Part shown: positions 31,857-44,319 of the stretch, piece by piece
Position numbering within the stretch: the stretch's first letter is position 1
Layout of the letters: each line of letters opens with the position of its first letter
Source of the DNA: Candidatus Iainarchaeum sp.
GTDB lineage: Archaea > Iainarchaeota > Iainarchaeia > Iainarchaeales > UBA10219
Direction: 5' to 3'
Assembly: GCA_018304425.1 (NCBI GenBank)
Contig: JAGVWE010000004.1
Location: 187,189-251,188 of the forward strand
Length of the DNA stretch: 64,000 nucleotides
Translations under genes and position numbers: made by a program
The notes under the pieces: generated by a model
The model's input: the letters and a program-made list of their open reading frames with translations, nothing else
Database searches by the model: none
What the model was told of the DNA's origin: nothing

Positions 31857-32342
31857 TCAGCAGCCTAAGAGGTTTTTTTCGACGTAGATGTCCGTCGTGC
31901 CCCCATGGGCCTGGCTGAACACGCGTTTCACGACCTGGAAGCCTTGCGCGCGGTAGAAGGCAAGCGTTTCCGGTTCGCCGCAGAGGATGAACGCGCGGAC
32001 CTTGGCGGCGTGCCGTTGCCGGAACTCGTGCAAGGCTTTTTCCAGCAACTCGGCGCCGAAGCCCGCCCGCTTTTTTTCGGGCAAGACGAGGAACTGCTCG
32101 ATGGTGCCATGCAATGCGCCCGTCTTGCAGTAAATGAAGCCGGTTACTTTCCGGTGTTCCCTGGCCACGAAGCAAAACCGTTTCTTGCCCGCGAAGTGCT
32201 TGACGTAGTCCAGGGTGATGTGGGCAACCCTTTCCTCGAAGGCGTGCGTGGGCAGCTTGTGGTGGTAAGCCGAAATCCAGGAGACCAGGAAGGTTTCCAG
32301 CACGTCCACGGCATCGCTTTCCTCGAACCGCTTGATGAGCAT
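31857..32342 (-). CDS. GNAT N-acetyltransferase
   Basis: VLPEKKRAGFG.ELL, FY..QGF. Confidence 0.85.
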   Translation of the reverse strand: MLIKRFEESDAVDVLETFLVSWISAYHHKLPTHAFEERVAHITLDYVKHFAGKKRFCFVAREHRKVTGFIYCKTGALHGTIEQFLVLPEKKRAGFGAELLEKALHEFRQRHAAKVRAFILCGEPETLAFYRAQGFQVVKRVFSQAHGGTTDIYVEKNLLGC

Positions 32343-33595
32343 TATTTCACCAAATCGTTTACTTTATTCAAGTCGCTTACCTTTAACTTGGTTTCCTTGC
32401 CGCTCGCCAGGTCCTTCAAGGTGAGTTCGCCTGCCGCTAGGTCCTTCTCCCCGACAATCAAGACGAATGGCACGCCCAAGCGGCTCGCGTACGCCAGGTT
32501 CTTGCTGATGCCGCGCCCGCAGAGGTCCATGTCCGTGTTCACGCCCATCCCGCGCAGCCTCTGCGCGAGGTCAACGGCCGGCTTCAACGCGGTTTCCCCG
32601 ATGGGGGCCACGAACACCCGCGTCCGGTTCTGCGCCGGCAACCGGTCTTCGAGGACGTCCAGCAGCCGGTCGACGCCGAAGCTGATACCCGTGGCAGGAC
32701 TCTCTTGCCCTCCATACAGACCGACCAGCTTGTCGTACCTTCCGCCGCCGGCGATGCTCGCCACTCCCGGCACCATGACCTCGAAGACGTTGCCCGTGTA
32801 ATACTCCAGGCCCCGCGCGAGTGAAAGGTCCAACTGCACCTTGCCCTTGCAGCCCTGCGCTTCCAGCATCCCAATCAAGTCCAGCGCTTCCTTTAGGCCT
32901 TCGCTGTCCTTGCCGACCTGCTTCATCGCGCTCGCCGCGTCGTTCTGGCGCACGACTTCCAGGATGTCCGTGGGGATGCCCTTCTCTTTTAGTTCCTTCT
33001 CGACGCCCTTCCACTCGATTTTGTCGGCCTTGTCGAGGCTGCGGAAACAGTCCACGACCTGCTCGGGCTTCACCTTGCACTTCTTCGCGAGTTCCTCGAG
33101 CAGCTTCCGGTTGTTCACCTTCACCTTTGCGTCAAGGCCCAGGCGCTTCACGATTTCGAGCGCACAGGCAATCACTTCGAAGTCCGCGAGCGTGGAGTTT
33201 CCCCCCACCGTGTCCGCATCCGCCTGTGTGAACTCCCGGTAGCGGTTGGCGCCCGGCCGGTCATACCGCCACACCTGCCCGATTGCATAGCGCTTGAAGG
33301 GCTTCGACAGGTCCCGGTTGGTTGCCACTACGCGACCCATTGGCACCGTCAAGTCAAACCGCAATCCGATGTTGCGGTCGCCCTGGTCCTTGAACCAATA
33401 AATTTCCTTGGAAATCTCCTGGCCCCCCGCCCCCTTCTTGGCCAGCAACTCGAGTTCTTCGAGTGCGGGCGTCTGCAGGGGATAGAACCCGTACAACTCG
33501 AACACCTGCCGGCAGGTGTCCTCGATGAACTGCTTCTTCTTCATGCGTTCCGGGAGAAAGTCCCGCGTGCCGCGCACGTTTTGAAAGGTCGTCAT
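32342..33595 (-). CDS. hisS: Histidyl-tRNA synthetase
   Basis: RGTRDFLP, LRFDLTVP, RYREFTQ, LARGLEYYTG, GGGRYD. Confidence 0.97.
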   Translation of the reverse strand: MTTFQNVRGTRDFLPERMKKKQFIEDTCRQVFELYGFYPLQTPALEELELLAKKGAGGQEISKEIYWFKDQGDRNIGLRFDLTVPMGRVVATNRDLSKPFKRYAIGQVWRYDRPGANRYREFTQADADTVGGNSTLADFEVIACALEIVKRLGLDAKVKVNNRKLLEELAKKCKVKPEQVVDCFRSLDKADKIEWKGVEKELKEKGIPTDILEVVRQNDAASAMKQVGKDSEGLKEALDLIGMLEAQGCKGKVQLDLSLARGLEYYTGNVFEVMVPGVASIAGGGRYDKLVGLYGGQESPATGISFGVDRLLDVLEDRLPAQNRTRVFVAPIGETALKPAVDLAQRLRGMGVNTDMDLCGRGISKNLAYASRLGVPFVLIVGEKDLAAGELTLKDLASGKETKLKVSDLNKVNDLVK

Positions 33596-33635
33596 AACCC
33601 ATACCTCCTAAGTTCCTTGCAGTTTAATAGGTTTT

Positions 33636-33740
33636 GCCTTCGGGCTGTGTCCTGCGCAGCAGGACACGTTTCCCCGAAGACGCGGTCTTCGGGGCCTCGT
33701 CCCCAAGGGGACAAGGTCGCAGGCCTTTTGTCAAAAGGCC
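33636..33740. repeat. Cluster of five adjacent hairpins between hisG and hisS
   Basis: gcc/ggc, gtgtcctgc/gcaggacac, ccccgaagac/gtcttcgggg, cctcgtcccc/ggggacaagg, ggcctttt/aaaaggcc. Confidence 0.8.
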
Positions 33741-34625
33741 TCACGGCACCACCCGGTTGAACTCGAATTCCACCAAGTCCGTGGCCCCCGCCTTCTTGAT
33801 GAGCGGGATAAGGCCCGGCACCGCCTCCCGGTCCACGGCCACGTTCACGGCATAGCCTTCCTCGCCGTAGAGCTTGGCAATGGTGGGTTTTCGCAGGCAG
33901 GGCAGGATTTTCACCAGCTCATCCAGGCGTTCCGCGGACACGTTCATGACCAGCATGGACTTCTTCTTGCCCAACAGCACGCTCTGCAACAGCGTATTGA
34001 TTTCCGCGATTTTAGCGCGCTTGGCCTCGTCCGCCCAGGCTGCCTTGTTCGCGATGAGCCGCGTTGTTGACTCCATGACCGTGTCCAGGATGCAGAGGTT
34101 GTTGGCCTTCAACGAGCTCCCCGTCTCGGTCAACTCCACGATGGCGTCCACCAGCCGCGGGCACTTCGCCTCCGTGGCCCCCCACGAAAACTCGACCGCG
34201 GCGCGCACCCCATTGCGGGCCAGGTATTCCTTTGCCAGGTTCACGTACTCGGTGGCCACGCGCTTTCCCTCCACGTCCTTCACCGACTTGATGCCGGAAT
34301 CACAGGGCGCAGCCAAGACCACGCGCACCTTGCCGAACCCCTGCTTGGAGTACAGCAACTCGCTGACCTCCTCGACCCTCGCTCCGCTCTCCGCAATCCA
34401 GTCCTTGCCCGTGATGCCCGCATCCATGACCCCGTCCTCGACGAACCTGGCCATCTCCTGCGCGCGCACCATCATGACCTCGATGCCCGGGTCGCTGATG
34501 GCCGGAAAGTAGCTTCTTTCCGTGGCCTTGATGCGCAGGCCCGCCGCGTTGAACAACTCGACGGTCGCGTCCTGCAGGCTCCCCTTCGGGATGCCCAACT
34601 TCAATTTCTCCTTCGTTTCGTTCAT
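33741..34625 (-). CDS. hisG: ATP phosphoribosyltransferase, long form
   Basis: [31 protein letters not shown]-terminal regulatory domain. Confidence 0.95.
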
Positions 34626-35614
34626 TTTCTTTCCTCCACCTTGCCAAAAAAGCAACTCCGTTGATTGGTGTGACACGCGTTGCCGGTCTGCTCGACCCGA
34701 AACAACAACGCGTCCGCGTCACAGTCGAAGCGCACTTCCCGCACGCGCTGGAAGTTGCCGCTCGTCTCCCCCTTCGTCCACAGCGCCTTGCGGCTCCGGC
34801 TCCAGTAACAGGCCTTGCCCTCGCGCAGGGTCTTCTCCAGCGAAGCGCGGCTCACATAGGCCAGCATCAGGACCTCGCCGTTGCCCGCATCCTGCACCAC
34901 GGCCGGAATCAAGCCGCGGCCCTTGCCGAAGTCCAGGCGATTGAACGCCAGCGCGTCCTCAACGGAAATCCTTCCCTCGTACAACGCCATGCCCACCACC
35001 GCATCCACGCCCAGCCAGTCCAGGCGCGCCACCTCAGCCAGGGAGGACACCCCACCCGCATAGACCAGCCTGTTCCGGGTCAGCCTGGCCAGCCTTTCCA
35101 CGCGCCCGAAATCAAAGCCCGCCATCCGCCCCTCGACCTCCACAAAGGTGGCCATGAACTCCCCGCAATAGTCCTCCAACTCTGGCAGCAGTTCCTCCGG
35201 AGTCCGCGACGTCGCCTCCTTCCAGCCCTTCACGACGATGCGGCCGTCCTTCGAGTCCAGGGCCGCGACCACTTTCTCCCTTCCCACCACGCCAGCCAGC
35301 TCCGACAGGAAGCCTTTCTCGGCCTTCGACCCGACGATGACCTTCTTCGCCCCGGCCTCCACCAGCGCGACCGCTTTCTCCACCGAGTCGATGCCGCCTC
35401 CCACCCGCGCCCGCACCTTCCAGCACAACGCCTGCACGGTCTCCAGGTTAGAGCCCTCGCGCAACGCGGCATCCAAATCAATGACCTGGACTTCCCGGAA
35501 CCCCTTGAACCGCTCCGCTAAGCCATCCACGTCCGTGGACTCCCACTTCTTCTCGCGGCCGCCCACGAGCTGCACCGCCTTGCCATCCATCAAATCAATC
35601 GCCGGAATGATCAT
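34622..35614 (-). CDS. hisA: ProFAR isomerase / phosphoribosyl-AMP cyclohydrolase fusion (HisA-HisI)
   Basis: [18 protein letters not shown]; [31 protein letters not shown]...SCF. Confidence 0.93.
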
Positions 35615-36366
35615 GGTCGCACCTCAACCCTTTTTTCCTTCAAGAACGCTTTCACTTGCCCAATCGTCAACTCCCCAAAATGGAAGACGCTCGCTGCCAG
35701 CACGGCGTCCGCGCCTCCAACGGCAACCGCGTCGTAGAAGTCTTGGAGGCCGCCCGCGCCCCCCGAGGCGATGACGGGAATGCGCGCCCGCACCCCAATC
35801 GCCGCCAGCAACTCCACGTCAAACCCCTGCTTGGTGCCATCGCGGTCCATGGAGGTTACTAGCAGTTCCCCCGCGCCCAGTTCCTCGGCTTGCTTCGCCC
35901 ACTGCACCGCGTCAAGCCCGGTCGCCTGCGAGCCCGCGCGCGAATACATTTCCCACCCTGCTCCCACCCGTTTCGCGTCAATCGCCACGACCACGGCCTG
36001 GCTCCCAAACTCCCGCGCCAACTCGCCAATGAGTTCAGGCCGCTCCACCGCCGCTGAGTTGACCGTGACCCGGTCGGCCCCGGCCAAAAGCAGTTCCCTG
36101 GCCGCTTTAACCGACTTAATGCCGCCGCCCACGGTCAAGGGCACGAAGACGCGCCGGGCCGTCCGCCGAACCAATTCCACCACGGTCTTCCGTTCTTCGA
36201 CCGTGGCCCCGATATCCAGGAAAGCGATTTCGTCCGCGCCCTCCGCATAATATTTTTCCGCCAACTCCACGGGCAAGCCTGCCGGCTGAAGGCATCCGAA
36301 ACGGACTCCTTTCACGACCTTCCCGCCCTTCACGTCCAGGCAGGGGATGATTCTCTTCGCCAACAT
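35611..36366 (-). CDS. hisF: IGP synthase cyclase subunit
   Basis: [32 protein letters not shown]. Confidence 0.97.
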
Positions 36367-36370
36367 GTTC

Positions 36371-36970
36371 TCACGCTTCCACGAAATTCCTCAACACCTG
36401 CAGCCCCACGGGGCCGCTCTTCTCCGGGTGGAACTGTACGGCCCACACATTTTCGCATTCCACGGCCGAAACGAATGACTCGCCGTACTCGCTCCGCGCC
36501 GCCACGAGGTCGGGCGCGGTCCGCTTCACGGCGAACGAGTTCACGAAGTACGCGTAGGCGCCATCCTCGACGCCCTCGAAGAGCCGCGTCTTCCGCGTCA
36601 AGCGCAACCGGTTCCACCCGATTTGCGGCACCTTCCGCGCAACCGTGAACCGCTCCACCCTTCCCCCCAGCAACCCAAGGCCGCTCGCGTCCAGGCTTTC
36701 CTCGCTCCCCTCGAACAGCAATTGGAACCCCAGGCAGATGCCCAGGAAAGGCGTGCCCTCCCGCACCCGCTCCCTGAGCGCCGCCTCCAAGCCCGTGCGC
36801 CGAAGGGAGGCCAGGGCCGAGCCGAAGTTGCCCACACCGGGGAGCAGGATTTTGTCGGCCCCTGCCAGGTCTTTCGGCCCGGACGCGGTTATGTAGCTTG
36901 CACCCAGCCAGTCCAAGGCATTCCCCAGGCTGCCCAGGTTGCCCGCGCCATAGTCCACGATTCCAATCAC
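36371..36970 (-). CDS. hisH: IGP synthase glutamine amidotransferase subunit
   Basis: IVDYGAGNL.S, LPGVG, LGICLG, QFHPEKS; GTG start overlaps the hisB stop. Confidence 0.95.
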   Translation of the reverse strand: MIGIVDYGAGNLGSLGNALDWLGASYITASGPKDLAGADKILLPGVGNFGSALASLRRTGLEAALRERVREGTPFLGICLGFQLLFEGSEESLDASGLGLLGGRVERFTVARKVPQIGWNRLRLTRKTRLFEGVEDGAYAYFVNSFAVKRTAPDLVAARSEYGESFVSAVECENVWAVQFHPEKSGPVGLQVLRNFVEA

Positions 36971-37572
36971 GTTTTCACCTCCCGCAACCTTCCCTTCGTG
37001 CTCGGCACGCCCCGCATTCTCGCATCCGGCTCGACCGCCATCCGCAAAGCCTTTCCAAACGACTTGAACAGGGCTTCCGCGATGTGGTGCGAGTTCCTTC
37101 CCGCCAACAACCGCAGTTGCAGCGTGCAGCCTAGGTTGGTGGCCAGCGCTTCGAAGAAGTGCTCGACCATCTCCGCACTCAAGTCCCCGACCTTCTTCGC
37201 CGGGAACCCGGCCTCGAACGCGAGCTTTCCCCGCCCGCTCAAGTCCAGCGCGCACAAGGCCAGGCTCTCGTCCATGGGCAGGACGAAAAAGCCATAGCGG
37301 TTGATGCCATTTCGGTCGCCCAGCGCCTGACTCAAGGCCTGGCCCAAGGCGATGCCCGCGTCCTCGACCAAGTGGTGCTCGTCGAACCGGTCCACGCACT
37401 CGGCCTCCAGCTTCACGTCCACGAGGCTCTTCGCGGCCACCTGTTCCAGCATGTGGTCGAAGAAGTCAATCCCCGTTCGCACCGCGAATTTTCCGGTGCC
37501 GTCCAGGTCGACTTCCACGCGCACGCGCGTCTCCTTCGTCTTCCGCTCCACCCTTGCCTTCCTCATCTCCAT
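36967..37572 (-). CDS. hisB: Imidazoleglycerol-phosphate dehydratase
   Basis: R.TKET, FFDHML, DEHHLVED, PMDESL, NSHHIAEALFK. Confidence 0.96.
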   Translation of the reverse strand: MEMRKARVERKTKETRVRVEVDLDGTGKFAVRTGIDFFDHMLEQVAAKSLVDVKLEAECVDRFDEHHLVEDAGIALGQALSQALGDRNGINRYGFFVLPMDESLALCALDLSGRGKLAFEAGFPAKKVGDLSAEMVEHFFEALATNLGCTLQLRLLAGRNSHHIAEALFKSFGKALRMAVEPDARMRGVPSTKGRLREVKT

Positions 37573-39277
37573 CCCTCCAGCGCCTCATTCACATCCCCAA
37601 AAACCTTTCCCGCTCCGTTCTTTCGGAGCAGTTCCCTCAACTCCCTTCCCTTGTCTTGGGGCGGCAGCACCCCGACCGCGGTCAAGCCCGCCCGCCGGGC
37701 CGCCTGCTGGTCGTCTGGCGTGTCCCCGAAGTAGGCCCCAGCCGCCGCAGGACCTCCTTCAACCCCCACGGGCCTGGCTTGGCCTTTCCGGGAGGCACGT
37801 CCTCCATGCACACGACCTCCGCGAACAAGTCCCGCACCCCAAAGCGTTGCAGCGCAAACTCGGCTTCCGCTCTCGGTCTGCCCGTGAACACCGCCAGCCG
37901 ATACCTTTCAGCCAACCGCTTCAACCCTTCCTTGTCCGCCAGCAGTTTCTCGTTGGCAATCAAGCCGCCAAAGTTTTTGCCGAGGTAAAACCCCTGGAAC
38001 ACTCGCTTCACCGTCGCCAGCTCCGCTTTCTTTCCCTTCCGCTTGGCCAGCTCGCGGCTCAGCTCCCAGTCGCTGTTGTAGCCGCCCTCGTTCTTCAACG
38101 CCTGGATTTCGCCGGCGCTCGCCTTCTTCCCGGTCAACCGTTCCACTGTCAACCGGATGGCCTCGCGGTAGGATTTCCGCACGTCGACGAGCACTCCATC
38201 GATGTCGAAGACGAGCACGGGCTCGGCAAGTACGCCCTTCAGTTCGCGCACGAAGCGTTTCATCTGCTTCCGCGTGCCAATCGTCACCCGACAGCAGCCC
38301 GCCAACAACGGGTAACCGGAGCGGTCGCGCACCAGCACCCCGCGCTCGCGCAGCTTCCGCACCACGAACTTCACCTGCGACCCCAGCCGGAGGATGAAGG
38401 CGTTGGCTTTGCCGAACCGCGCTTCCACACCCAACCGTTTCAGGGCCTTCCGCAGCCAGGCCCGGCTCTTCCCCACTTCCCGGACATAGGCCCGCATGTA
38501 GGCCAGGTCCCCCAAAGCCGCCAGCCCAGCCCGCAAACCGGCTCCGCTGACCGGATACGGCCTTGCAGCGGCCGCCAGCCTTTCGATGACGGGCGCCTGT
38601 GCCAAGGCATAGCCCATGCGCAGCCCCGCCAAGCCGAAGGCCTTGGACAGCGTGCGCAGCACCAGGAGGTTGCCATATTTCCTGAGCATGGGGACCAGGG
38701 TCTCCCCGCCGAACTCGATGTAGGCCTCATCCACCAGCACCAACGCGTTCGGCGCGCGGCGCAGCAGCCGTTCAACCTGCTTGCGCGTGACCGTGGTTCC
38801 CGTCGGGTTGTTGGGCGAGCACACCACGATTGCGGCCGTCCGCGCGTTCACCGCCCCGAGCACGCGCTTGAGCGGGAAAGAAAACCCTGCGTCGTCGTCC
38901 AACAACACTTCCCGCACTTTCAATCCCGCCAGCTTCGCGTACAACTCGAACGGTGAGTACGTCGGAACCGGGAGCACGACTTCGCCGCGCGGCCTCCGGA
39001 TGGCGTCGAAAATCTTGTCGATGGCCTCGTCCGAGCCGTTGAACAGCAGGACGTTCTCCGGCCGCACCTTGCAGTAGGCCGCCACCTTCTCCGCCAGCCG
39101 CCGGCTCTCCGGATAAGCGGCCACCACTTCAGCCGTCAGGCCCCGCAACGCCTTCACCACCTTCGGGCTCGGCCCCACCGTGTTCTCACCGAAGTCCAGT
39201 CGCAGCTTGCCCAGCCTCCCGGCTATGGGCGGAACGTACTTTTCCGCTTCCATGACCTCTCCTCGCATTCCCATCAT
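37563..39277 (-). CDS. hisC: Histidinol-phosphate aminotransferase fused to a HAD phosphatase; frame break near 37738
   Basis: NGSDE, SPNNPTG, VDEAY, RTLSKAFGLAGLR; HAD motif FDIDGVLVDV; AYFGDTPDD continues in another frame to 37563. Confidence 0.88.
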
Positions 39278-40566
39278 TTCCGTTTCACCTCGAACCGTTT
39301 CTCCACCGACTTCCTGTGCGCGTCCAGCCCCTCTTCCCGGGCCAGGCACGCGACGGCCGGCCGCAAGGCCTCCAAACCCCTGCGCGACAGCCTTTCCACG
39401 TTCTGGAACCGCATGAACTCAAGCACGCTCAACCCGGACGAGAACCGGGCCGCGCGCCCGGTCGGCAAAACGTGGTTGGTGCCGCTCGCATAGTCTCCGG
39501 CCGCCTTGGGACTCCAAGGCCCCAGGAAAACCGTGCCCGCGTTGACGAGCCCATCCACAAACCGTTGGCCGAAGCCCCAGACCTCGGCGTGCTCGGCCGC
39601 GAAGTCGTTGGCGAACCGCAGGACCTGTGCCTCGTTTTTTGCGAGGACAATCAGCCCGTTTCGTTTCAGCGACTGCCGTGCAACTTGGCCGGTCGCCAGT
39701 TCCCCCAACTGCTGCTTTAACTCCTTTTCCACTTGCCGCGCCAGCTTCCGCGAAGTCGTGACCAGCACGCTGCGCGCGTTGGGCTCGTGCTCGGCGGAAG
39801 CCAAGAGGTCGGCGGCCATCCATTCCGGGTTCCCGCTTTTCGCCAGCACCAGCAGTTCGGTGGGCCCGGCCAGCAAGTCGATGCCGACCTCGCCGTAGAC
39901 GAGCCGCTTGGCCGCCGTGACATACGCGTTTCCCGGCCCGAAAACCTTGTCCACGCGTGGAATGCTTTCCGTGCCGTACGCCATCGCGGCAATGGCTTGC
40001 GCGCCCCCAACCTTGAAGATGCGGTCGGCTCCCGCCAGCAGGCAAGCAGCCACGATCAAGGGATTCGCTTTCCCGTCCTTCCGCGGCGGCGTGCACACGA
40101 TTTTCTCGCGCACGCCCGCCACCTGCGCGGGCACCAGGTTCATCAGCGCGGTCGATGGCAGCGGATATCGCCCGGCAGGGACATAGACCCCGACGCGCTC
40201 GATGGGCCGCACGGTCTGCCCCGCGTATATGCCGTTACCGAAGCCTTTTGCCCAGCTTTTAGGCAGGGCCGCCCGCTGGAAATCCGCGAGGTTCTTCGTC
40301 GCGCACTTCAACGCGCTCCGCTGTTCCTTTGTCAGGCCGCGCAGGGCCGCGCGTTTCTCGGCCGCGCCCACTTCCAGTTCGTTTGCCGATAGCGTGACCC
40401 GGTCGAACCGCCGCGTGAATTCGCGCAGGGCAGCGTCGCCGCGCCTGCGCACGGCCTCGAGTATTTCCCGTGCCGCTGGCTCCGCTGCGCGGTTCGCTTC
40501 CGCTTTCGGTTTCACCAACCGTTCATAGTCCGTTCGCGAAACCCCGGCCAACTCGACCCGGGTGAA
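39274..40566 (-). CDS. hisD: Histidinol dehydrogenase; probably initiated at ATG 40603 via a +1 shift, alternative TTG start 40551
   Basis: GVYVP.G, GGAQAIAAMAYGT, GPGN.YV, AGPTE, AEH, GDY..GTNHVLPT. Confidence 0.95.
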   Translation of the reverse strand, partial: FTRVELAGVSRTDYERLVKPKAEANRAAEPAAREILEAVRRRGDAALREFTRRFDRVTLSANELEVGAAEKRAALRGLTKEQRSALKCATKNLADFQRAALPKSWAKGFGNGIYAGQTVRPIERVGVYVPAGRYPLPSTALMNLVPAQVAGVREKIVCTPPRKDGKANPLIVAACLLAGADRIFKVGGAQAIAAMAYGTESIPRVDKVFGPGNAYVTAAKRLVYGEVGIDLLAGPTELLVLAKSGNPEWMAADLLASAEHEPNARSVLVTTSRKLARQVEKELKQQLGELATGQVARQSLKRNGLIVLAKNEAQVLRFANDFAAEHAEVWGFGQRFVDGLVNAGTVFLGPWSPKAAGDYASGTNHVLPTGRAARFSSGLSVLEFMRFQNVERLSRRGLEALRPAVACLAREEGLDAHRKSVEKRFEVKRK

Positions 40567-40978
40567 CTAAACCCCTTCTGTCAGTCTTGCGACTAGTCGT
40601 CATAACCCAACCCACCTCCAAGAGAAGTTGTTGGGCTACCCCCAATGATGGAGTAACCCGTGGTGAACTAACTCAACCCGTTCGGTTGAAGAAAAGAAAG
40701 GGCCGGTGCGGGGAATTGAACCCCGTTCAGAAGGTCCACAGCCTTCTATCCTAACCGATAGACCACACCAGCCATTACGCCTTTTTACAAAAGGTGTGCG
40801 AAAACGTCCCATGCGCGGCATGGGACTGCCCTCAGTATTGGCTTCGCTAAAAGAGGGACAAGCGCTGAGAATAGTTTCATAGCTAGCCAAGTCAAGTAGG
40901 GCGTTATCGCCGGCTATGAAGTAAATTCCTTCTCATAGGTTAATCGCTCACATATCTTCCGTCTGCGGAGTTTAAATA
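40523..40978 (-). promoter_or_regulatory. his leader: TATA box, three uORFs with His-codon putative +1 shift sites, RBS-sequestering hairpin, embedded tRNA-His
   Basis: TATTTAAA 40978-40971; uORF 40936-40904 MRRNLLHSRR; frame ending VHHGLLHHWG* at 40636; uORF 40603-40523 with AGA AGG GGT TTA GTT CAC. Confidence 0.78.
40701..40773 (-). tRNA. tRNA-His(GTG) with encoded G-1
   Basis: G-GCTGGTG...CACCGGC-C; GAAGG-CT-GTG-GA-CCTTC. Confidence 0.95.
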
Positions 40979-40980
40979 GG

Positions 40981-41496
40981 TTATGGTTTGCCTTCCGCAG
41001 CCGCTTGTTCCTGTCTTTCTTGCAGCAGCCGCTGGGCCGCCTGGATGCCGGCCATCAGTTTAACTGGTTCCCTGGCCGTCAACACGAGTTTCTTGAAGTG
41101 CCCGGACTTCTTGTGCACCAACATGGACTGCTTGTGCTGGGAAACGAAGTAAAGCGTGTCTAGGCTCATGCGGACGCCCCACCCGATGTAGAACGGGACG
41201 CGGTCCACGAGTTCCGCCGACGAAATGTCTTGCACCGGCACCCGGTACGAGTAAAACGGCAAACGGATCTCCAATGCCTGCTCGGTGGCCACGAACCGCA
41301 TCAAGTACAACCAATAAAAGGCCAGGACTACCAGGCCCAGCGCGGCCAGGCCCGGCGCCAGTGACTCGATTCCCACGGCCTGCTGGGAGAGATAGTACAA
41401 CAACGCGGCCAACGCCGCGACCAACGCCAACCAGAAGCCCTTGAACGCCCAACCCACCGGCGCCTGCTCCTCGTACAAGACCCGTTCAACGGCCAT
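40981..41496 (-). CDS. Membrane protein, two TM helices plus a possible PH-like domain
   Basis: Hydrophobic hairpin followed by YIGWGVR motif. Confidence 0.7.
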   Translation of the reverse strand: MAVERVLYEEQAPVGWAFKGFWLALVAALAALLYYLSQQAVGIESLAPGLAALGLVVLAFYWLYLMRFVATEQALEIRLPFYSYRVPVQDISSAELVDRVPFYIGWGVRMSLDTLYFVSQHKQSMLVHKKSGHFKKLVLTAREPVKLMAGIQAAQRLLQERQEQAAAEGKP

Positions 41497-41640
41497 GCCC
41501 TATTCAAGTGCGAACCCGTATTTAATGGTTTTCGCGCAGCCTTTTTGGCTTCGCCAAAAAGCCTGGGGGAAAACGCTTCCTGCCTTGCAGGAGACAGGCG
41601 AACCAGCGAAGGCACGGCAGAAGCCGGAGAAAAAGGAAAG

Positions 41641-41661
41641 TGCACGGGGCAGGATCCGAAC
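41641..41661. repeat. Duplicated 3' end of tRNA-Leu (21 bp, 1 mismatch)
   Basis: tgcacggggcaggatccgaac vs tgcacggggcaggattcgaac at 41732. Confidence 0.85.
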
Positions 41662-41731
41662 AGCCTTTTTACAAAAGGCTGGCGAAAACGTCCGAATGCA
41701 ACCCCTTCTCGCTTCGCTCGAAGGGGTGGAA

Positions 41732-41815
41732 TGCACGGGGCAGGATTCGAACCTGCGAAGGCACTAAGCCACTGGCCCCTGAAGCCAGCACGTTTGGCCG
41801 CTTCGTTACCCGTGC
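41732..41815 (-). tRNA. tRNA-Leu(CAG)
   Basis: CTGGC-TT-CAG-GG-GCCAG, long variable arm, GGTTCGAATCC. Confidence 0.95.
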
Positions 41816-42056
41816 AGCTGACGAAGCGTCAGCTGGCACCGCATACGTCGTCCCATCTCGCTGCTGCTCGATGGGACATAAATATGCCGTGCTTTGCCTG
41901 CTTCAAACCTAAGAGGCTGGGAAAGGGTTTTTATGGCTTGCCATTGAAGAAAGGCAGTGGCATACGTGGTATGCCACCTTTTCCCAGGGCTTCGTTGTCC
42001 ACTTCGTGGACGACGCCACCAAAAGCGAAGCTTTTGATGGTTGTAAAAAGCCCTAG

Positions 42057-42130
42057 CGACCCCGTTGGGATTTGAACCCAAGCCTAGAGCTCCGGAGGCT
42101 CTTATGCAATCCAGACTACACTACGGGGCC
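42057..42130 (-). tRNA. tRNA-Arg(CCG)
   Basis: AGAGC-CT-CCG-GA-GCTCT. Confidence 0.93.
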
Positions 42131-42151
42131 AACCCCTTTTGCCGGGGCAAG

Positions 42152-42225
42152 CGCACCCACAGGGATTTGAACCCTGGCCGGCAGCTCCGCAAGCTGCTAT
42201 GCTATCCTGGCTACACTATGGGTGC
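42152..42225 (-). tRNA. tRNA-Arg(GCG)
   Basis: GCAGC-TT-GCG-GA-GCTGC. Confidence 0.93.
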
Positions 42226-42335
42226 AACGATACAGATTAACGGAGGGGGCTTTTTTAAAACCACTCCTAGGCGGAATATTTATGTCCCACCACAGGTGGG
42301 ACGACATAGGGCGTCCAGCCGCCACCTTCGTCCGG

Positions 42336-43412
42336 CTAAATCCAGCCCTGGCCCCCGCCTTTCCGTTCTTCCGGGGGAGCGGGCTCTTCGTCGTAGGCCG
42401 TTACCCGGTTGCTGTTCAGCAACAACTGGGTGTACGCGAACTTGAGGGCCTTGTCCAATAAGACCGTGTAAATGATGAGCAGCGGCTTGAAAACGAATTT
42501 TGTGAGCAAGTAGAACATGCTCGTGAAGACGAAGGCCACGACGAACCAAAAGTTTTTCTCGATGACTGCGAAGAGGGGCACCCGGGCTTTCAGGGTGGCG
42601 AACGCGCTCTGTTTTTCGGCTTCGCTGGGTTCCACGGGTTTCTTGGCTTTCAGCCTTTCAACGACTTCCTGTCGGTAGGCCTTGGAGCCGAGTTCGAGTT
42701 TCTTGGCCTGCACTTTTTTGGCGAACGCCGCAACCCTCGGGTCCAGGCTTTCCCCGAGTTTCTGGTATTCCTCGGTTTCCAGGAGGCCGTCCAAGAGCAT
42801 GCGCTGGTTGATGATGACAAGGCTCGCGTTTTCTTCCACCAATGCCCGGGTGCCGGCGCCGACCAGGGAGTTGGAGACCACAGCGGACTCGAAGTCGTTC
42901 AGGTAGGTGGCGGGGTTTCCGTTCACTGCCAGGGCAATGGAGGCGAACACGCCGAAGCTGATGAGCAGCGCCACGTAGCCGTATCCCGCGGTGATGGCTT
43001 TCACCAACGCGTTCCCCTTCACCGTGGACAAATACCAGTAAACGATTTCAATGAAGAGGAAGACGCTCAAGGCGTAGAACGTCAGCGGCCAGGCGAAGTC
43101 CACGAGGTTCTTGAACAGGAAGAGGGCGGCAAACCCTCCGAGCACCAGTCCCACGGCGGAGGCCAGGTGCATGTTCTCCTTTTCCTTGACCTCCGAAAAA
43201 GAGGCCACCAGGGCCAGTGTGAGGGGAAACAATAGGAGAAACGCGTAGAAGGGGAGCGACAGCACCTTGTCGAGGTTTTCTCCCAGCTTGCCGAGCATCA
43301 CGATTTCGGAGAGCTTCACGCCGGAAGCGTTGAGGGAAAACATCCACGCGAAAACCGTCAACGCAATCAAGGCAGCCAAGACAAGGGTTTCCGCGTCCAC
43401 CTTTAATGCCAT
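42336..43412 (-). CDS. Multi-pass membrane protein
   Basis: 358 aa, about 6 TM segments around a soluble helical domain. Confidence 0.75.
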   Translation of the reverse strand: MALKVDAETLVLAALIALTVFAWMFSLNASGVKLSEIVMLGKLGENLDKVLSLPFYAFLLLFPLTLALVASFSEVKEKENMHLASAVGLVLGGFAALFLFKNLVDFAWPLTFYALSVFLFIEIVYWYLSTVKGNALVKAITAGYGYVALLISFGVFASIALAVNGNPATYLNDFESAVVSNSLVGAGTRALVEENASLVIINQRMLLDGLLETEEYQKLGESLDPRVAAFAKKVQAKKLELGSKAYRQEVVERLKAKKPVEPSEAEKQSAFATLKARVPLFAVIEKNFWFVVAFVFTSMFYLLTKFVFKPLLIIYTVLLDKALKFAYTQLLLNSNRVTAYDEEPAPPEERKGGGQGWI

Positions 43413-43416
43413 GGGC

Positions 43417-44319
43417 TTACACCAGCACTATTACGTCGTTGTCCTTTAATATCATGCAGGTTTCGGCCTGTGCCACCATGGCGCCCTTTTGCTCCAGCAA
43501 AACCGGGTAGGGCCGGATGCAGCCCTTGAGCAGGAGCTCCCGCAAGCCCATCCTCCGCTTGAAGTCCGGCAACTTCAACTCGTTGTGGGCATACCGTTCG
43601 CTCCAGGGCAGGGTCTTGTACTTGCCGGCAATGAATTCCATGATTTTCCGGGCTTCCGGGTTCCGGATGGGCCTCGGCTCCTGCAAGCCATAGATTTCGC
43701 AGGCGCTTCCCTCGTGGATGAGCCCGCGGCCATTGGTTGCAAAGGGTTCAATGGCAATCGCCATGCCTTCCACGAGTTTCCTGGACTGCTTCAAGCCCAC
43801 GTTGGGCATGCTGGGATTGGAGTGCGTGGTCCACTGCTCGAGGCCGTGCCCGCACAGGTTCTGCACGGGCTTGAAGCCATACCCCTTAATCGTGTCCTCG
43901 ATGGCTTGCCCGATTTTCCCGACCTCCGCGCCAACCCTTACCCCGGCAATGGCGTTCTCCAAGGCCCTTTCGCTGGCCTCCAAGAGCTTCCCCCATTCCC
44001 CGGAAAAGTCCAGGGAAAAAGCCGCGTCCGCGATGTAGCCCTGGACTTGCACGCCCAAGTCCACCTTGATCAAGTCCCCTTCCCCGACCACCCGTTCATC
44101 GTCCACGCAGGGACTGTAATGGGCGGCTTCATCGTTTACGGACAGGTTAGCCGGGAAGGCCGGCCCAGCTTCTTTGTCTATATCAGTGATTTCCTTCTCC
44201 AGGCATTCAGCGATATCAAGCAGTTTAGCGCCTGGCTTAACCATTTTTCTGGCCTTTTTCTGCAATTCATGCAGTATTTTGCCTGCCCTCACGTAGTTTT
44301 TCGCAATGGTTTCATCCAT
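43417..44319 (-). CDS. map: Methionine aminopeptidase type 2
   Basis: AFPANLS.N..AAHY, KVDLG, GYIADAA, NLCGH, AIEPFAT, AQAE. Confidence 0.95.
   Translation of the reverse strand: MDETIAKNYVRAGKILHELQKKARKMVKPGAKLLDIAECLEKEITDIDKEAGPAFPANLSVNDEAAHYSPCVDDERVVGEGDLIKVDLGVQVQGYIADAAFSLDFSGEWGKLLEASERALENAIAGVRVGAEVGKIGQAIEDTIKGYGFKPVQNLCGHGLEQWTTHSNPSMPNVGLKQSRKLVEGMAIAIEPFATNGRGLIHEGSACEIYGLQEPRPIRNPEARKIMEFIAGKYKTLPWSERYAHNELKLPDFKRRMGLRELLLKGCIRPYPVLLEQKGAMVAQAETCMILKDNDVIVLV

Follow-up and report, generated by a model that had tools for sequence, protein, structure and literature searches.

A leader of serial His-codon modules ahead of hisD in a Candidatus Iainarchaeum genome: a putative ribosome-based histidine sensor

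From the analysis of a 64,000-nucleotide (nt) stretch of Candidatus Iainarchaeum sp. (assembly GCA_018304425.1, contig JAGVWE010000004.1, positions 187,189 to 251,188; in the following called the window), we delineated the leader of a histidine biosynthesis (his) operon that begins with hisD on the minus strand. The leader holds three copies of a short module, s0, s1 and s2, whose His codon is one base out of frame with the reading frame that continues downstream, and a tRNA-His gene lies between s0 and s1. Judged by its sequence and that of its relatives, this leader is real and conserved, and very probably functional. We incline, by a small margin over even, to read it as a ribosome-based histidine sensor, in which the three modules in series would form a relay of +1 frameshifts at hungry His codons, as an initial annotation made from the letters of the window had proposed in outline.

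Anatomy of the hisD leader

The anatomy of the leader can be read directly from the sequence. From its 5′ end to hisD, the elements are the following (SD, Shine-Dalgarno sequence; uORF, upstream open reading frame).

40971–40977, minus strand: TATA-like TATTTAA(A), read from the sequence, about 38 nt 5′ of the uORF0 ATG
40904–40936, minus strand: uORF0, from ATG 40936, M-R-R-N-L-L-H-S-R-R and TAA
40915–40930, minus strand: module s0 in uORF0, AGGAAT-TTA-CTT-CAT-A, heptamer 40915–40921
40636–40917, minus strand: frame Z, 93 sense codons and TAG (40638–40636), reached from s0 by a +1 step (skipping C40918 after CTT); crosses tRNA-His and ends in ..ELVHHGLLHHWG and the stop
40700–40772, minus strand: tRNA-His (GTG), called by ARAGORN; Rfam RF00005 at 55.3 bits versus a gathering score of 29
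40662–40677, minus strand: module s1 just after the tRNA, GTTGAG-TTA-GTT-CAC-C, heptamer 40662–40668
40602–40639, minus strand: hairpin that pairs the SD-like GGAGGTG (40613–40619) and abuts ATG 40603
40593–40595, minus strand: TAG closing the 23-codon +1 frame from s1 (first His pair), 8 nt past ATG 40603
40523–40603, minus strand: uORF2, 26 codons and TGA, SD 9 nt upstream, His as codon 14; contains ..G-L-V-H.. and overlaps the hisD start
40561–40576, minus strand: module s2 in uORF2, AGGGGT-TTA-GTT-CAC-C, heptamer 40561–40567
39274–40563, minus strand: hisD, with coordinates from the +1 entry codon; Pfam PF00815, E 3.5e-149

At s2, the hisD frame lies one base off at GTT-CAC (40567–40562), so that a +1 step there enters hisD. 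In this frame TAG (40569–40567) is followed by F-T-R-V-E-L-A-G-V-S-R-T-D-Y-E-R-L, the stop codon shutting the frame immediately before the entry codon ACC (40561–40563), exactly as the initial annotation had described for the uORF at ATG 40603. An alignment of 30 HisD N-termini places the TAG in the column of the initiator Met and ACC at the second residue. The first canonical start codon, TTG 40551, is five codons inside the conserved N-terminus. At its other end, the stop codon of hisD overlaps the hisC ATG as ATGA, so that ribosomes entering hisD can continue down the operon.

The two upstream stages of the annotated cascade were likewise recovered. A +1 step at MRRNLL-H of uORF0 opens into the long frame Z, whose ending in His pairs leads to a TAG at the start of the hairpin, and the distance from s0 to the s1 His codon is 253 nt (1 mod 3). 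Beyond s1, the second His pair, CAT CAT, lies at 40645–40650, and TAG 40670–40668 shuts the +1 frame right 5′ of the s1 entry point. From the first His pair, the +1 frame reaches the stop at 40595–40593, as predicted. The hairpin burying GGAGGTG folds at −22.2 kcal/mol (z = −2.62; matched by 4 of 200 shuffles). Two features had been overlooked: the tRNA-His gene within the long frame, and the origin of both L-V-H sites as copies of one 10-mer, TTAGTTCACC, which has two occurrences in the 1,477,149-bp genome, both in this leader. Directly after s2, at 40548–40566 on the minus strand, CGGGTCGAGTTGG resembles by eye the 5′ part of s1 (CGGGTTGAGTTAG); this stretch looks like a third, decayed module copy that now supplies TTG 40551.

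The module begins with a G-rich, SD-like hexamer; after a spacer of 3 nt come a [C/G]UU codon, the His codon CAY and usually C. In hisD leaders it takes the 16-mer form G[GT]TG[AG][TG]-T[CT]A-[CG]TT-CAC-C. It occurs in direct repeats, up to four per leader and three in the window. Its first six letters are SD-like because the 16S rRNA ends in ..GGATCACCTCCT. Each of the 14 modules tested reaches −4 kcal/mol or better in pairing with this tail, the duplex ending 3 nt ahead of the P-site codon; among 4072 control sites, 26.6% do so. The 10 upstream nt of s0 form a duplex of −4.0 kcal/mol and s2 one of −5.9 kcal/mol. SD-like words are enriched before open reading frames (ORFs), at 16.4% versus 6.2%. 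The tRNA genes that slipping would require, tRNA-Leu(GAG), tRNA-Val(GAC) and tRNA-Thr(GGU), are present in the genome, and re-pairing of tRNA-Leu(GAG) from CUU to UUC would involve one G:U and two Watson-Crick pairs.

Frame relations in relatives

Among 196 genomes of the order, 43 have hisD, and the comparisons below cover 30 hisD loci. A tRNA-His gene lies just upstream on the same strand in five of these loci, and the repeated 16-mer precedes hisD in four (the window genome, called G000, and G039, G013 and G173). The His codon of every module is in the frame of a short uORF with a start codon, and in all five hisD-first leaders the module is offset by one base from the frame of the first his gene. 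Its +1 frame is hisD itself in the window, G039 and G013; in G173 and G019 it ends in a TGA that overlaps the hisD ATG. An ATG is found at the canonical hisD N-terminus in 27 of the 30 loci, the exceptions being the window, G039 and G013, the fusion-type leaders. The eight codons that precede the first ATG in G039 and G013 are the same in both genomes except at three third positions and match the N-terminus of another family, which suggests that these codons are translated although no start codon precedes them. In G015 the site reads C-ATG, from which nothing can be inferred.

Operons beginning with a short hisG gene repeat the arrangement (for instance in family f5, G172, G122 and G148). All 29 assessable leaders of this type, with G155 (masked) and G146 (contig end) left out, have a uORF that begins with a start codon and runs in the −1 frame of the gene, its His codon lying within the open N-terminal stretch of the gene; in the control, the long internal hisG, such a uORF was seen at 1 of 24 loci (by eye, no script). 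Together with the five hisD-first leaders, this makes 34 genomes from ten families of the order in which the His codons and the one-base frame offset of the third stage are kept, in agreement with the conservation expected by the initial annotation. Chance, i.e., unrelated short ORFs combined with a random open frame in GC-rich DNA, could draw on the many spurious ORFs in the region and on the loose-scan and tRNA open-frame controls given below; conservation across these genomes makes it barely credible.

Of the 38 short-hisG sites, 31 have CAT and 7 have CAC as the His codon, C follows in 30, and the P-site codons include CTT (17), GCC (6), CAA (4), GTT (3) and ATT (2). CAC is found in GC-rich genomes and CAT mostly in AT-rich ones; by this drift the word changes while its meaning as a His codon stays. 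TTC and ATC are constant also in AT-rich genomes, pointing to a second constraint on these positions. In all sites examined the A-site codon is His (CAY), the zero frame stops 1–28 codons after it, and the module spacings of 18, 25, 33, 34 and 101 nt all fit the frame logic. These properties bear on the idea that the 16-mer is a DNA operator or RNA site for a histidine-responsive protein and the frame relations are by-products. Direct repeats restricted to his leaders would suit such a site. Spacings that vary but always fit the frames, a drifting word that still spells His, an ATG at a fixed small distance and stop codons that overlap the next ATG would not be expected from it, and no regulator gene was noticed travelling with the motif, for which no systematic search was made. 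We therefore regard a protein site as very improbable.

The module is kept at the nucleotide level between families whose HisD proteins are 44–51% identical; the window and G039, with HisD 46% identical, nevertheless share 17 identical nt between s2 and a G039 module. In the phylum, 4 of 215 genomes matched the composite pattern, each time at hisD, versus five scattered matches of the reversed control. Across the order, the 13-mer clusters solely in G000, G013, G039 and G173, with lone matches elsewhere at control level. A scan of genome contigs returned at least 120 stretches, and among the 80 loci listed three had a hisD match: L069 and L098, one each from G039 and G013, contain hisD plus tRNA-His, and in L113 hisD lies ~3 kb away from the matching site. 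The other 40 listed genome-contig stretches all lacked hisD. Matches at L086 and L095 were dismissed as coding tandem repeats, and none of the 55 stretches from a scan of metagenome contigs held hisD or any tRNA.

In several modules, here called closed, a TAG in the +1 frame lies just 5′ of the entry point (window s1 and s2, G039 s3, G173 s2, G093 s1, G089 s1 and G172), so that they offer no other way into that frame. The alternative of no frameshift at all would make the uORFs ordinary His leader peptides acting by stalling or occlusion and the module an initiation region (GTG-ATT-YAC-TTC..), with hisD starting at TTG 40551 and short hisG at GTG or TTG. Many leaders indeed hold an in-frame GTG or TTG, and the GTG of the module starts uORFs in G013, G173 and G004. 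In the closed modules, however, the TAG separates the GTG from the gene, and a usable start ahead of conserved residues is missing in G039, G013, G004 and G148. In G004, no canonical start is found until 18 codons past the site (Pfam HisG), and the hisG of G148 also lacks one: the frame begins GTG-ATT-CAT-TGG in G152 and GTG-ATT-CAT-TAG in G148 (L273 versus L270), where the stop codon cuts off the only in-frame start. A +1 gene without its own start was not seen in leaders that keep GTG, TTG or ATG. Moreover, stalling at the His codon would leave the ribosome sitting on the nearby start, so that starvation would repress the operon, which is the wrong direction. We consider this alternative improbable.

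The tRNA-His gene and the proposed relay

The tRNA-His gene of the leader is the only one among the 39 tRNAs detected in the genome; its G-1 is encoded at 40773, CCA is not encoded and CTTTCTTTTCTT comes next. A first reading, in which the tRNA made the first stage of the cascade spurious, was dropped after the same layout was found in relatives of family f21 (G093, G020 and G089). There, uORF0 starts with ATG and contains ..L-L-H; the tRNA-His gene comes next, then a module that reads ..L-V-H-H-stop, and after an SD follow uORF2, again started by ATG and containing ..S-L-H, and short hisG. The window has this same layout.

In all seven tRNA-linked leaders, an ATG lies 4–7 codons before CTT-CAY upstream of the tRNA, the counterparts of uORF0 ending ..[L/C]-L-H.., and the +1 frame that s0 leads into passes the tRNA without a stop and is open over 74–152 codons, compared to 14–55 codons in the other two frames. 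In six of the seven, with lengths of 80–152 codons, this frame ends within a few codons of the s1 His codons. The +1 frame from s1 in turn ends on the next ATG, overlapping it as TAATG in G093 and as ATGA in G020, G089 and G019. In this way the comparison supports the first and the second stage, of which the first is not significant in the window genome alone. At L294 (G089, minus strand, ~230–385) we noted a tRNA-His-like sequence with an intron-like insert after the anticodon loop, which ARAGORN did not call.

A more restricted explanation holds that only s2 and uORF2 work as a His-dependent +1 site, that s0, s1 and frame Z are relics of module duplication, and that the operon borrows the promoter of tRNA-His. 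It is consistent with the lack of significance of frame Z in the window genome, with G039, where frame Z ends directly behind the tRNA and is succeeded by an ordinary uORF with SD and ATG, and with the 29 short-hisG leaders, which have one or two modules, mostly at loci in which no tRNA was seen. Relics would not be expected, though, to keep the relation of s0, frame Z and s1 in six of seven linked leaders despite very different lengths, nor to have the +1 frame of s1 end exactly on the next ATG in four relatives. In three AT-richer genomes (37–48% GC), frame Z is open over 84–159 codons, with naive probabilities of open flanks of 7e-4 to 1.3e-2, and in G089 it stays open even across the intron-like insert of the tRNA. 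On balance we find this explanation unlikely. The TATA-like box upstream of uORF0 is a candidate for a single promoter of the whole unit, which would place uORF0 first on one transcript.

For the favoured relay, the sequences show the anatomy, its conservation and the frame relations; from these we infer that ribosomes slip, that they do so in response to histidine and that they re-initiate, as well as any part played by the hairpin. With plentiful charged tRNA-His, the short zero-frame uORF would just terminate. With scarce charged tRNA-His, the ribosome would pause at CAY and slip by +1. A slip at s0 in uORF0 would lead into frame Z, translated through the tRNA-His gene; a slip at s1 near the end of frame Z would lead into the 23-codon frame that crosses the SD-holding hairpin, and as this frame stops 8 nt past ATG 40603, we propose that uORF2 would be (re)initiated. 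A slip at s2 in uORF2 would then enter the hisD frame at its natural N-terminus, and the rest of the operon would follow by coupling. The initial annotation had frameshifting, hairpin melting and re-initiation act in series. By comparison, the cascade of frames appears sound, with the third stage firmest and the first weakest; for melting, there is one modest hairpin in the window, and its conservation was not found.

We further consider, tentatively and with less confidence than the relay itself, that one transcript may have two fates and that the tRNA-His gene in a translated frame acts as a processing-dependent switch, an archaeal counterpart of attenuation. With plentiful histidine, translation of uORF0 would end before the tRNA, which would fold and be excised, and the his mRNA would be severed and silenced. 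With scarce histidine, ribosomes slipped at s0 would cross the nascent tRNA-His, which would thereby neither fold nor be cut, and the checks at s1 and s2 would follow before HisD is made. If this is true, three serial hungry-codon checks would give a steep, histidine-specific response.

Several points weigh against such a relay. The relatives are kin, and the leader counts overstate their independence. TTG 40551 could start hisD without a slip, and several short hisG genes offer a GTG or TTG in frame ahead of the site; TTC-ATC in short-hisG leaders also encodes F-I of the gene, so that its conservation could partly be ordinary coding. At s1 and s2 of the window, re-pairing from GUU to UUC leaves one mismatch, versus none from CUU to UUC, a weakness already named in the initial annotation. 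No 3′ stimulatory hairpin is consistent across the modules. A loose scan for frameshift sites, rejected as a criterion, was unspecific in GC-rich DNA and gave 31 matches genome-wide in G000. In the same genome, an open sense frame of at least 100 codons is found at 11 of the 39 tRNA genes, with tRNA-His ranking 12th, and the naive probability that the flanks of frame Z stay open is 0.04; frame Z of this GC-rich genome therefore proves by itself nothing for the first stage. Three serial slips would have a low yield unless each is efficient, we know of no precedent for translation through a tRNA gene, and none of the RNA runs listed carries the locus.

The leader sequence itself was reproduced without differences in contigs assembled from other runs (X6 over 40300–40757 and X9 over 40562–40718). 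A low-depth contig from two runs differs from the window over 40538–40671, and this natural variant was analysed by applying its listed differences to the window sequence by script. In the variant, the tail of frame Z is extended by 18 nt in frame with both His pairs and the stop kept, uORF2 gains 3 nt in frame and one synonymous change, and a single-base deletion falls between SD and ATG. The spacing between s1 and s2 is thereby 121 nt versus 101 nt in the window. Because this spacing equals 1 mod 3, ribosomes shifted by +1 at s1 of the variant would pass straight into uORF2 and meet the s2 His codon in frame. Thus, all frames are kept, and each version would retain a ribosome path. At 40776–40828, just upstream of tRNA-His, many unrelated contigs from four runs pile up, with a summed depth of up to ~100 compared to ~10 on the flanks; this stretch contains a hairpin, GTCCCATG..CATGGGAC, followed by TTTT and looks like a repeat or a widely shared element.

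Known systems and the surrounding locus

In the +1 frameshift site of release factor 2 (RF2), the SD-like element lies 3 nt from the shift site, the same spacing as in the module. The RF2 passages of a 2016 recoding review describe a short zero-frame ORF, a CUU shift codon and an internal upstream SD-like stimulator, with a functional protein made from the +1 frame and the slip being sensor and effector at once, in all of which the leader resembles RF2 (PMC5009743). Unlike RF2, the leader has a sense His codon in the A site, belongs to an archaeon and heads a biosynthetic operon; the sensed species would thus be charged tRNA-His, not a release factor. It also differs in having up to three serial sites and one frame that crosses a tRNA gene. 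The yeast Ty1 heptamer CUU-AGG-C combines CUU, a slowly decoded sense codon and C, a logic that the leader would share, and according to the Ty1 passage of the same review it gives ~40% +1 frameshifting on its own (PMC5009743). In contrast, Ty1 depends on a rare tRNA, does not sense an amino acid and is a retroelement, not a metabolic operon. A uORF of zip-2 in Caenorhabditis elegans is likewise reported to use frameshifting on the translating mRNA to report elongation trouble (PMC11831180), but is eukaryotic, not specific for an amino acid and not linked to a biosynthetic operon.

Sensing by His codons has a different precedent. Bacterial hisL differs from the leader in acting by transcription termination through alternative hairpins and in its consecutive run of His codons. 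In enterobacteria, translation of these hisL codons tells the his operon how much charged tRNA-His is available. The leader described here has 1–4 scattered His codons, and its single hairpin in the window is followed by an ATG, not by a T-run, with no terminator/antiterminator pair. RNA attenuators are named for Proteobacteria, and T-box leaders of his genes, which couple the status of tRNA-His to expression, for Firmicutes and Actinobacteria (PMC9413887). T-boxes differ in binding uncharged tRNA directly, and an Rfam scan of 39000–43500 (E ≤ 1) returned the tRNA and weak unrelated matches only, with no T-box or riboswitch.

Sensor-effector +1 frameshifting (RF2, antizyme) and His-codon leaders (hisL) are each known, and their combination would be new if our reading is right. 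To our knowledge, no leader-peptide regulation of amino-acid biosynthesis is established in archaea. The literature search, with supplements outside its range, found no report of frameshifting in a his operon or of such leaders in archaea. The recoding review holds that trans-frame proteins specific to starvation could arise from hungry-codon frameshifting, yet adds that "no examples are known" (PMC5009743). If true, the leader would be the first natural case, widespread in one order of DPANN archaea (34 genomes, ten families), with a sequence rule directly testable by swapping the His codon, and with a tRNA gene inside a translated frame as a further feature. For annotation, gene finders that depend on a start codon would call hisD and short hisG too short or broken here and in such relatives.

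The host is an archaeon, its small and large subunit rRNAs fitting archaeal models, with a genome of 1.48 Mb (1,477,149 bp) in seven contigs. On the minus strand, an ORF of 171 amino acids (aa) of unknown function precedes the leader, followed by hisD and the remaining genes in the order hisC-HAD, a glutamine amidotransferase (GATase)-bearing ORF, hisA/F, hisF/A-hisI, long hisG, hisS and a GNAT gene (Pfam).

32342–39277, minus strand: remainder of the operon, from the hisC-HAD fusion to hisS (Pfam)
37682–39349, minus strand: hisC aminotransferase fused to a HAD-family hydrolase domain
36371–37399, minus strand: 342-aa ORF with a glutamine amidotransferase domain confined to residues 167–340
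32342–33595, minus strand: histidyl-tRNA synthetase (HisRS) gene hisS
41731–42225, minus strand: upstream cluster of tRNA-Arg(GCG), tRNA-Arg(CCG) and tRNA-Leu(CAG)

The hisC-HAD fusion also occurs in relatives, and its HAD domain possibly provides the histidinol-phosphate phosphatase step. No Pfam family matched the first 166 residues of the 342-aa ORF, and imidazoleglycerol-phosphate dehydratase was not identified among the operon genes by Pfam. As hisS ends the same gene string, tRNA-His, histidine biosynthesis and HisRS share one cluster; in G025, a HisRS-like gene lies directly behind tRNA-His, and hisD comes after it. In G004, an ORF with an ACT domain (L016, 400–714) ends just upstream of the f5 his leader and may encode an amino-acid-binding regulator. 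The tRNA-Arg(GCG)–tRNA-Leu(CAG) pair of the upstream cluster is syntenic with G015.

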